NCBI RefSeq assembly: GCF_003334785.1 | Contig: NZ_QOWV01000091.1 | Length of the DNA stretch: 271 nucleotides | DNA from: Escherichia coli | GTDB taxonomy: Bacteria; Pseudomonadota; Gammaproteobacteria; Enterobacterales; Enterobacteriaceae | Reading direction: 5' to 3' (one strand) | Notes under the pieces: generated by a model | What the model was told of the DNA's origin: nothing | Seen by the model: only the letters and a program-made list of their open reading frames with translations | The model's database searches: none | Shown: positions 3-264 of the stretch, piece by piece | Numbering within the stretch: the stretch's first letter is position 1 | Layout: each line of letters begins with the position of its first letter | Translations under genes and position numbers: made by a program

Positions 3-36
3 GTAGGCCGGATAAGGCGTTCACGCCGCATCCGGC
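3..36 (-). repeat. REP palindromic unit, Y type (copy 1)
   Basis: + strand reads GTAGGCCGGATAAGGCGTTCACGCCGCATCCGGC, the reverse complement of the Y consensus written 5'-GCCGGATG...CCTAC-3' (strand given in that convention; it would be + if REP is written GTAG-first). Imperfect stem arms 7-19 and 25-36 around loop ttcac (20-24). Confidence 0.8.
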
Positions 37-49
37 AATGGTGACAAAT

Positions 50-78
50 GCCTGATGCGCTACGCTTATCAGGCCTAC
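50..78 (+). repeat. REP palindromic unit, Z2 type (copy 1)
   Basis: GCCTGATGCGCTACGCTTATCAGGCCTAC; imperfect dyad with arms gcctgatgcg / cgcttatcaggc around a short central tac; terminal CCTAC (GTAG on the opposite strand). Head-to-head with the Y PU across the 13-bp linker 37-49. Confidence 0.8.
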
Positions 79-95
79 AGATTCTCGCGCCACTC

Positions 96-129
96 GTAGG
101 CCGGATAAGGCGTCCACGCCGCATCCGGC
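96..129 (-). repeat. REP palindromic unit, Y type (copy 2, loop variant)
   Basis: GTAGGCCGGATAAGGCGTCCACGCCGCATCCGGC; identical to copy 1 except the loop reads tccac instead of ttcac (t21 vs c114). Stem arms unchanged. Confidence 0.8.
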
Positions 130-142
130 AGTGGTGGCAAAT

Positions 143-171
143 GCCTGATGCGCTACGCTTATCAGGCCTAC
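143..171 (+). repeat. REP palindromic unit, Z2 type (copy 2)
   Basis: Identical to 50-78. The upstream linker 130-142 (agtggtggcaaat) differs from 37-49 (aatggtgacaaat) at two positions. Confidence 0.8.
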
Positions 172-188
172 AGATTCTTGCGCCATTC

Positions 189-222
189 GTAGGCCGGATA
201 AGGCGTTCACGCCGCATCCGGC
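189..222 (-). repeat. REP palindromic unit, Y type (copy 3)
   Basis: Identical to 3-36, including the ttcac loop. Confidence 0.8.
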
Positions 223-235
223 AATGGTGACAAAT

Positions 236-264
236 GCCTGATGCGCTACGCTTATCAGGCCTAC
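236..264 (+). repeat. REP palindromic unit, Z2 type (copy 3)
   Basis: Identical to 50-78 and 143-171; followed by agattct, the start of the tail-to-tail linker, where the window ends. Confidence 0.8.

Follow-up and report, generated by a model that had tools for sequence, protein, structure and literature searches.

The REP23 Array in the yahG-yahI Spacer of Escherichia coli: An Atypical BIME of Y and Z1 Units with a Probable Role at the RNA Level

Introduction

REP elements, or palindromic units (PU), are imperfect palindromes of about 30–35 nt with an internal stem mismatch and the motif GTAG or CTAC at one end, which are highly repeated and located outside of genes. They are combined to BIMEs of different types. 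Single-copy pairs of a Y and a Z1 unit separated by an L linker represent the BIME-1 (RIP) arrangement, in which the L linker carries an IHF site. Canonical BIME-2 consist of Y and Z2 units in tandem copies with a short S linker between the unit heads and are cleaved by DNA gyrase in vivo, and atypical BIMEs are defined as multi-copy mixtures of y, z1, z2, L, S, s, l, and r motifs. The REP transposase TnpA-REP (RAYT) needs a folded single-stranded DNA unit with the mismatch and GTAG.

The closest described array is REP325, situated between yjdM and yjdN. According to a 2026 preprint, deletion of REP325 results in an approximately 3-fold decrease of yjdM and an approximately 10-fold increase of yjdN, REP325 gives rise to a ladder of hairpin-ended transcripts, and read-through increases from 23% to 39% in the presence of bicyclomycin. 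Overall, read-through is attenuated about 8–10-fold by REP325, partly through Rho. For 146 tandem gene pairs separated by REPs, a median log upstream/downstream ratio of 0.96 was reported, compared to −0.09 for controls. The same 2026 preprint found no general increase of mRNA half-lives by terminal REPs and a dependence of their effects on the context, observed no measurable effect of REP325 on nucleoid compaction, and proposed “REPs as tunable dials” for REPs in general. Furthermore, Term-seq data indicate that transcripts terminated by Rho have their stable 3' ends at stem-loops devoid of a U tract, which act as exonuclease barriers.

Results and Discussion

Identity and Genomic Context

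The stretch of DNA analysed here, 271 nt in length and referred to as the window in the following, is identical to the reverse complement of positions 339801–340071 of E. coli K-12 MG1655 (NC_000913.3, complement(339801..340071)). Within the retrieved loci it corresponds to positions 4001–4271 of L002 and, as reverse complement, to positions 2802–3072 of L003. A match of 100% between the window and the yahG-yahI spacer was observed in many E. coli genomes. This site is catalogued as REP23 in the EcoCyc/EcoGene repeat annotation, with yahH being described as “filled with REP23 sites”. The K-12 array comprises eight units in 3.9 copies of a 93-nt unit. The window represents the interior of REP23 with six of these eight palindromic units; the remaining two, a Y toward yahG and a Z1 toward yahI, lie outside of it. 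REP23 is a named element of a long-known kind at a catalogued site and as such already known.

Within the putative yahDEFGIJ operon, the spacer between yahG and yahI is filled by REP23, which also overlaps yahH, an ORF of disputed status. In K-12, the first Y stem lies 13 nt past the TGA of yahG and the last Z1 ends 50 nt ahead of the ATG of yahI. Due to the location of yahG, yahI, and the rest of the putative operon on the minus strand of the window, any operon transcript carries the reverse complement of the window. An earlier reading of the DNA, made from its letters alone (the sequence-only reading), had asked for the flanking genes and their orientation and had tied its functional proposals to the case of an array at the 3' end of or within an operon. 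Both points are answered by the position of the array between the yahG stop and the yahI start of the putative yah operon, with both genes on the minus strand. All 5426 E. coli genomes contain matches to the window; the median number of places is 27 per genome, which is an undercount, and the sole “gene” overlapped by REP23 is the disputed yahH. The anonymous window is by this means pinned to a catalogued element and the transcribed strand is fixed; beyond its correct annotation the importance of the window is slight.

Repeat Architecture

The window contains 2.9 copies of a 93-nt tandem repeat (95% matches, TRF score 507). Each 93-nt unit is composed of two imperfect palindromes in opposite orientation, a 35-nt Y and a 30-nt Z, separated by an 11-nt head-to-head and a 17-nt tail-to-tail linker. 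The Y unit GTAGGCCGGATAAGGCGTTCACGCCGCATCCGGCA is located at 3–37, 96–130, and 189–223, the Z unit TGCCTGATGCGCTACGCTTATCAGGCCTAC at 49–78, 142–171, and 235–264. All six units are imperfect palindromes of REP length with an internal stem mismatch and GTAG or CTAC at one end. No IHF motif (WATCAANNNNTTR) was detected in the array, even with one mismatch permitted. The features of the window are as follows (energies for RNA on the plus and minus strand, respectively).

1–271, minus strand: interior of the untranslated yahG-yahI spacer, sense strand, with 2.9 of the 3.9 copies of the 93-nt (Y-17-Z1-S) unit of REP23
1–271 (overlapping), minus strand: annotated ORF “yahH” (b0322 / WP_001295687.1), judged a by-product of the repeat period without a part in the mechanism
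3–37, minus strand: Y palindromic unit, GTAG-first on the plus strand; the sense (minus) strand reads TGCCGGATGCGGCGTGAACGCCTTATCCGGCCTAC
3–37: Y hairpin of 7+4 pairs with internal mismatch, −20.9 and −21.3 kcal/mol, z −4.4 and −5.4
38–48: S-like head-to-head linker ATGGTGACAAA, which aligns with the 13-nt linker of the Rfam naRNA4 model
49–78, plus strand: Z1 palindromic unit TGCCTGATGCGCTACGCTTATCAGGCCTAC, hairpin of −13.2 and −12.9 kcal/mol
79–95: 17-nt tail-to-tail linker AGATTCTCGCGCCACTC, too short for the approximately 32-nt L linker of BIME-1
96–130, minus strand: Y palindromic unit, loop variant TCCA, −20.9 and −21.3 kcal/mol
131–141: S-like linker variant GTGGTGGCAAA
142–171, plus strand: Z1 palindromic unit (hairpin energy)
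172–188: 17-nt tail-to-tail linker AGATTCTTGCGCCATTC
189–223, minus strand: Y palindromic unit (hairpin energy)
224–234: S-like linker ATGGTGACAAA
235–264, plus strand: Z1 palindromic unit (hairpin energy)

Assignment of the Z Unit and Type of BIME

The short unit had been labelled Z2 by the sequence-only reading. This label does not hold, since the 29–30-nt type corresponds to Z1 and the loci named z2 carry a unit of 36 nt. In detail, the 36-nt Z unit GCCTGATGCGACGCTGGCGCGTCTTATCAGGCCTAC or close variants of it are present at three loci which the literature names z2/BIME-2, namely the sucB-sucC spacer, the BIMEs flanking rayT (REPtron), and REP325; the rayT-flanking BIMEs are described as “y REP and z2 iREP” and REP325 as “Y-l-Z2”. 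A scan for the exact 30-nt Z unit of the window in one genome per species identified it in Escherichia coli, E. albertii, Citrobacter, Pseudocitrobacter, and Pluralibacter. In 84 out of 126 contexts it occurs in single copy at a distance of 30–34 nt from a Y unit, and the linker of these 84 single-copy Y-L-Z contexts has the form ...CTGCAATATATTGAATTTGCA.... Due to its predominant occurrence in single-copy BIME-1 contexts elsewhere and to the 36-nt unit of the z2 loci, the short Z unit of the window is, as judged by sequence and context, Z1 and not Z2.

REP23 shares the unit types Y and Z1 with BIME-1, and it shares with BIME-2 the short linkers and the tandem amplification (3.9 copies in K-12, with an 11–13-nt linker that aligns with that of REP325). 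Its Z units are of the 29-nt type instead of Z2, and its linker of 17 nt in a tandem array differs from the long L linker with IHF site of a single-copy BIME-1. REP23 with its mixed motifs in multiple copies is thus an atypical BIME and not a canonical BIME-2. The assignment as canonical BIME-2 was rejected on the basis of the reference BIME-2 loci and the usual context of the 29-nt unit, that as BIME-1 with IHF site because the IHF motif is lacking. By the corrected unit type, Z1, REP23 is moved from BIME-2 to the atypical BIMEs.

Folding of the Array

With −20.9 (plus strand) and −21.3 kcal/mol (minus strand) for Y and −13.2 and −12.9 kcal/mol for Z, the RNA hairpins of the single units exceed the stability expected from 300 dinucleotide shuffles (z −3.2 to −5.4, with 0–4 shuffles as stable). 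As single-stranded DNA, hairpins of −12.2/−11.3 kcal/mol for Y and −8.4/−8.6 kcal/mol for Z were calculated. The RNA of the whole window folds with −130.0 (plus strand) and −131.2 kcal/mol (minus strand), corresponding to z −6.8 and −6.6, respectively, and none of 200 shuffles reached these values. Folding energies too weak for stable hairpins had been named as an outcome that would speak against the hairpins, and the computed energies show the opposite, namely stability on both strands and beyond that of shuffled sequences.

The minimum-energy fold of the window is dominated by long-range Y-Z pairing (−130 kcal/mol, compared to −109 kcal/mol if pairs are restricted to at most 40 nt). For a single Y/Z pair, two separate hairpins and Y-Z pairing differ by only 1–3 kcal/mol, in good agreement with the earlier suggestion that adjacent Y and Z units could pair with each other. 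Of the “six stable hairpins in series” proposed from the sequence, the six stable units are indeed found at 3–37, 49–78, 96–130, 142–171, 189–223, and 235–264, but the series is not the minimum-energy fold. In folds of the growing chain, the first units form locally, and this modelling suggests that local hairpins would form first during transcription.

A scan of the window and of the whole yahG-yahI spacer revealed no terminator-like site on either strand. The longest T run of the window is 2 nt on the plus strand and 3 nt on the minus strand, as expected from the previous statement that no hairpin is followed by a T/U tract on either strand. Due to the lack of a U tract after the stem-loops, the hairpins are not intrinsic (Rho-independent) terminators, and with the empty scan this candidate function was ruled out. 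The corresponding claim of the sequence-only reading is correct as far as it goes; it is too narrow, since REP325 attenuates read-through in part via Rho.

Covariation of the Y Hairpin

Y-type units were collected from 120 loci by a search on sequence without structure, 76 distinct 35-nt GTAG-first copies were kept, and these copies, all from other loci, were aligned with MAFFT without structural input. Over the 76 copies, 94.4% of the cells of the Y hairpin are paired, compared to 23–44% with the partner slid. Changes on both sides were observed for 6 out of 11 pairs. The number of compensated cells is 15 versus 3.3 ± 1.5 in column shuffles (none of 500 shuffles reached 15), and the covariation score is 0.131 versus 0.101 (0 of 500 shuffles). 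In the first Y of the Nissle-type allele, the inner stem is doubly compensated (GGCG/CGCC to GACA/TGTC). Certain compensated Y variants may represent single events that were copied many times.

The covariation in the alignment supports selection on the hairpin fold. It would fit a constraint on RNA and a constraint on DNA equally well, because TnpA-REP needs a folded single-stranded DNA unit and RNA and single-stranded DNA are for this reason not told apart by covariation.

Proposed Role at the RNA Level

By analogy to the arrays described above we propose that REP23 acts as an exonuclease barrier for the yahG-proximal RNA and as a partial attenuator of read-through into yahIJ, a reading to which we assign a probability of roughly 0.6. 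Transcription of the yah operon would read the minus strand of the window, with the units folding one after the other upon emerging from the polymerase. The stem-loops stacked in this way would block 3'-to-5' exonucleases, so that the yahDEFG-proximal RNA outlasts the distal part, and would lower read-through into yahIJ, possibly in part through Rho, which would act on the long stretch without translation. Expression would thereby be biased to the genes upstream of REP23. Exonuclease protection and differential expression within operons had also been named by the sequence-only reading, and in the literature these are the best-supported roles for such arrays.

RNA-seq and footprint coverage of the spacer was reported in EHEC (Neuhaus et al. 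2016). In the REP325 preprint, the gyrase Topo-seq and Term-seq papers, and Qian et al., with their supplements covered in part, no transcript, 3'-end, half-life, or Rho data were found for the yahG-yahI spacer; the sole line on REP23, yahG, or yahI in this material is a modest read count of yahG in one dataset. The sense strand of the array is neither C-rich nor G-poor (C/G 0.93), so that a site for Rho loading within the array is hardly indicated. Moreover, REP23 is inverted compared to REP325 relative to transcription, which renders the analogy inexact. A strong version of the proposed role is further weakened by the context dependence stressed in the 2026 preprint and by the presence of alleles with different unit numbers side by side in E. 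coli.

Origin and Strain Variation

Across the E. coli strains retrieved, alleles of the yahG-yahI spacer with 0, 2, 4, 6, 8, or 10 units were found, which always differ by whole Y-17-Z1 steps. This coexistence of alleles ranging from 0 to 10 units indicates that there is no strong constraint on the presence or the length of the array. The units of one allele are 95–100% identical, indicating recent duplication. Of 5426 complete genomes, 1945 contain the Y-S-Z1 junction (18–72 of the window), with a median of three copies each, and among the matches listed for E. coli genomes it occurs only at the yah locus. The junction has thus been generated by tandem duplication in place and does not represent a dispersed motif. 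In E. albertii, a Z1-17-Y unit is situated at the orthologous site and is duplicated with a period of 162 nt that includes the 3' tail of yahG; accordingly, the founding unit was either present before the two species separated or gained on two occasions at this place. Taking these alleles together, local tandem duplication of one old Y-17-Z1 unit probably gave rise to the array, which would still gain and lose copies. The hairpin number is accordingly variable among strains and not a fixed design.

A REP-less allele is present in 378 of 5426 genomes; at the same place, it carries an unrelated, single-copy GC-rich stem-loop of 11 bp, likewise without U tract. This stem-loop represents an independent hint toward a hairpin role.

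The main alternative to a role at the RNA level is a selfish or neutral repeat. In this case the array would be no more than a trace of REP proliferation in a spacer that tolerates it, brought about by TnpA-REP/RAYT activity together with slippage during replication or unequal recombination between 93-nt units, and any effect on the yah operon would not have been selected. The allelic series in whole Y-Z1 steps, the near identity of units within an allele, the junction unique to the yah locus among the matches listed, and the different 162-nt duplication at the same place in E. albertii are all consistent with such an origin. The same holds for the literature, in which variable BIME copy number is described as general and cleavage and recombination of BIMEs by TnpA-REP were observed in vitro, and for the poor characterisation of the yah operon. 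However, a selfish origin does not bar an effect at the RNA level once the array is transcribed, stable hairpins in operon spacers show measurable effects wherever tested, and the REP-less allele keeps a stem-loop at the same place. We therefore consider this alternative possible though rather unlikely; it is compatible with an incidental RNA effect.

A second alternative, somewhat less probable, is a translational brake on yahG. In this case the first Y stem would stall the terminating ribosome, resulting in mRNA cleavage, ribosome rescue, and less YahG. Stems located less than 16 nt from a stop codon were reported to stall terminating ribosomes (a 2015 study, as far as summarised in PMC12306157), and the distance of 13 nt between the yahG stop and the first stem, which is found in the K-12, O157, and Nissle-type alleles, falls into this range. 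In further alleles, and likewise in E. albertii, the distance amounts to 23–24 nt, so that close spacing is not conserved, and the Y unit concerned lies outside the window. A brake of this kind is for these reasons doubtful.

Considering again REP23 as exonuclease barrier and attenuator, it is tempting to speculate that the Y-Z1 unit number, which ranges from 0 to 5 or more among natural isolates, serves as a heritable, fast-mutating dial on read-through into yahIJ and on the stability of yahDEFG RNA, although we regard this extension as quite unlikely. If true, each added hairpin pair would lower yahIJ read-through and raise yahDEFG RNA stability by a graded amount, and strains would differ in the stoichiometry of the carbamate-kinase/amidohydrolase pathway with unchanged promoter and coding sequence. 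A second layer would be given by the 13-nt versus 23-nt stop distance, which would switch ribosome stalling on or off. The natural series of 0–10 units at one operon spacer would represent a convenient test bed for the idea of REPs as tunable dials.

REP23 as a DNA-Level Element

Instead of acting through RNA, the array might exert its effect as DNA, either double-stranded or extruded, by providing a site where gyrase binds and cleaves or by keeping supercoiling from spreading. According to the literature, gyrase cleavage sites are over-represented in BIME-2, prefer Y units, and are independent of transcription, and BIME-2 sites are mostly located at the borders between supercoiling regions. 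The stability of both Y and Z1 as single-stranded DNA hairpins would fit as well. Nevertheless, the gyrase and supercoiling data concern Y/Z2 BIME-2 and REP23 has Z1 units, REP23 was not found in those parts of the gyrase Topo-seq supplement that were covered, and array-less strains are common. A function in DNA topology is thus improbable, more so than a brake on yahG.

Automatic Labels: yahH and naRNA4

Two automatic annotations are attached to the locus. The first is yahH, which would imply that the array is translated into a repetitive small protein (X002 in EHEC). RefSeq annotates this gene, and ribosome footprints over a 465-nt ORF at this site were reported in EHEC (Neuhaus et al. 2016). 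Two of the three sense frames are free of stops (0 in 90 codons), simply because the 93-nt period corresponds to 31 codons. The YahH of K-12/PGAP and the X002 of EHEC are located in different frames, X002 switches its repeat-frame midway through a 92-nt unit, and the ORF is missing from alleles with 0–2 units. No NCBIfam or Pfam family was matched above cutoff in either frame, so that neither a conserved frame nor family support is given, as would be expected for a protein-coding gene. Furthermore, a genome contains hundreds of copies of this sequence, so that footprints of approximately 30 nt would not be assignable to a locus, and nuclease-resistant hairpins can presumably mimic footprints. 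Due to the competing frames, the missing family match, and its absence in short alleles, yahH was rejected as a protein, for which we see very little prospect, and the best explanation for the annotation is an artefact that arises from the period of 31 codons.

The second label is given by the Rfam family RF02564 (naRNA4), which matches the plus strand of the window three times with 78, 78, and 72.4 bits at a gathering score of 59.5. On the minus strand, the operon sense strand, the scores of 53.9, 53.9, and 52.7 bits remain below this threshold. In practice, the RF02564 model recognises a generic Y-linker-Z unit. A further Rfam match to mir-456 (18 bits, E 0.2) is noise. In a scan for promoters of antisense, naRNA4-like transcription, none was found in the window and a single weak match inside yahI is no better than chance; such a promoter was rejected. 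That each 93-nt unit encodes a small RNA which, as originally claimed by Qian et al. 2015 for naRNA4 of REP325, binds HU, bridges cruciform DNA together with it, and condenses the nucleoid, a reading suggested by the three matches above the gathering score, is the least credible of all readings, since these matches are restricted to the strand antisense to the yah operon, which shows no promoter-like site above chance, the second hairpin is 7 nt shorter than that of the RF02564 model, and the 2026 preprint, which includes the original senior author, reports no effect of REP325/naRNA4 on nucleoid volume or REP-REP contacts. The labels “protein YahH” and “naRNA4” are therefore shown to be weak guides to function.

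Comparison with Known Systems

The sequence of the window is identical to REP23 of E. coli K-12, of which it holds six out of eight units. With BIME-1/RIP, REP23 shares the unit types Y and Z1. Unlike REP23, with its 17-nt linker, its lack of an IHF motif, and its tandem arrangement, BIME-1/RIP elements are single-copy and contain a linker L of approximately 32 nt (...CTGCAATATATTGAATTTGCA...) with IHF.

The REP stabilisers of the malE-malF type and the 3'-end stem-loops of Rho-terminated transcripts resemble REP23 in being GC-rich, without U tract, and situated past a stop codon. For these systems there is direct half-life and 3'-end evidence, whereas the role of REP23 is proposed by analogy to them.

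REP325 (the naRNA1-6 array, yjdM-yjdN) is a canonical multi-copy BIME-2 with a 36-nt Z2, a period of 100 nt, and 12 units, compared to the 29-nt Z1, the period of 93 nt, and the eight units of REP23. Relative to transcription, the two arrays face opposite ways, REP23 being Y-first and REP325 Z-first. Therefore, naRNA4 matches the sense strand in case of REP325 (95–111 bits) and only the antisense strand in case of REP23 (72–78 bits). Apart from these differences, both arrays consist of alternating, inverted Y and Z units with 13-nt head-to-head and 17-nt tail-to-tail linkers in tandem, both match RF02564, and both are located in an operon spacer between tandem genes.

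Allelic variation of the yahG-yahI spacer

A REP-less allele of the yahG-yahI spacer was found in 378 of 5426 genomes. At the array position this allele carries its own stem-loop, which is unrelated to REPs and lacks a U tract, and this suggests that a stem-loop 3' of yahG is kept with or without REPs. The stem-loop of this allele and two further spacer variants are located as follows:

L007 (strain NRZ14408) 622-646: single-copy, GC-rich stem-loop of 11 bp, CCCUUCUCCCU-UCU-GGGGAGAGGGG
L010 613-647 and L012 613-647: first Y unit of the Nissle and O2:H6 alleles
L017 (E. albertii NBRC 107761) 3884-4126: two copies of a Z1-17-Y unit with a 162-nt period, in the spacer orthologous to yahG-yahI

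In the Nissle and O2:H6 alleles, which share approximately 94% identity with K-12 over the whole spacer, the inner stem of the first Y is changed from GGCG/CGCC to GACA/TGTC, i.e., by two compensated pairs, and the adjoining Z1 units contain GAAG/CCAC variants. Strain EC8 (L011 1-600), which carries a single-unit allele, has its yahG annotated as a pseudogene with a frameshift, a reminder that certain lineages can do without the yah operon.

In the K-12, O157, and Nissle-type alleles, the first Y stem follows the yahG stop codon at a distance of 13 nt (L003 2745-2757); for other alleles of E. coli and for E. albertii, this spacing amounts to 23-24 nt (L009/L011 601-623; L017 4126-4149). Between these two spacings falls the limit of 15 nt reported for REP-induced ribosome stalling, as summarised in PMC12306157.

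The 162-nt period of E. albertii NBRC 107761 takes in a duplicate of the final ~50 nt of yahG and contains the junction TAATGGTGCCAA, which is similar to the S-like linker of E. coli. The E. albertii duplication may represent a snapshot of how the 93-nt unit of E. coli originated together with its linker.

Reading frames across the array

The name “YahH” covers two different ORFs, read on the window minus strand in two frames of one repeat:

L003 2794-3090 and 2763-3134: YahH/X002 ORFs
L008 814-1278 and 845-1141: YahH/X002 ORFs

The K-12/PGAP YahH ORF begins with MAQESVGLISVAHQAF and the EHEC X002 ORF with MRRERLIRPTNG. That both frames stay open is due solely to the 93-nt period, which equals 31 codons; within X002, the repeat frame switches midway through a 92-nt unit.

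Matches to the naRNA4 model and in MAGs

The Rfam model of the small RNA naRNA4 (RF02564) matched at the following positions:

Window 6-75, 99-168, and 192-261
L004 806-1382

RF02564 acts as a general-purpose detector for BIME units of the Y-linker-Z type: any of these exceeds the threshold on one strand and reaches ~53-56 bits on the other. A match is therefore uninformative as to whether a particular locus is transcribed or involved in HU binding.

Z1 units identical to that of the window, paired with Y units of the usual enterobacterial type, also occur on the MAG contigs L014, L038, and L039, labelled as Oscillospiraceae, Bacteroides, and Bacteroidales, respectively (Firmicutes and Bacteroidetes bins). 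L014 and L039 have flanks in common. All three are probably mis-binned Enterobacteriaceae contigs.

Stretch with more C than G downstream of the array

The only sense-strand stretch of the spacer with more C than G, CATAACCCCATCACCCTCT (L003 3121-3160; C/G 1.44 in 40 nt), is situated outside the window directly 3' of the array, in the segment that separates the final Z1 from the yahI ATG. This is where Rho loading would be expected under a “protective hairpin, then rut site” model.
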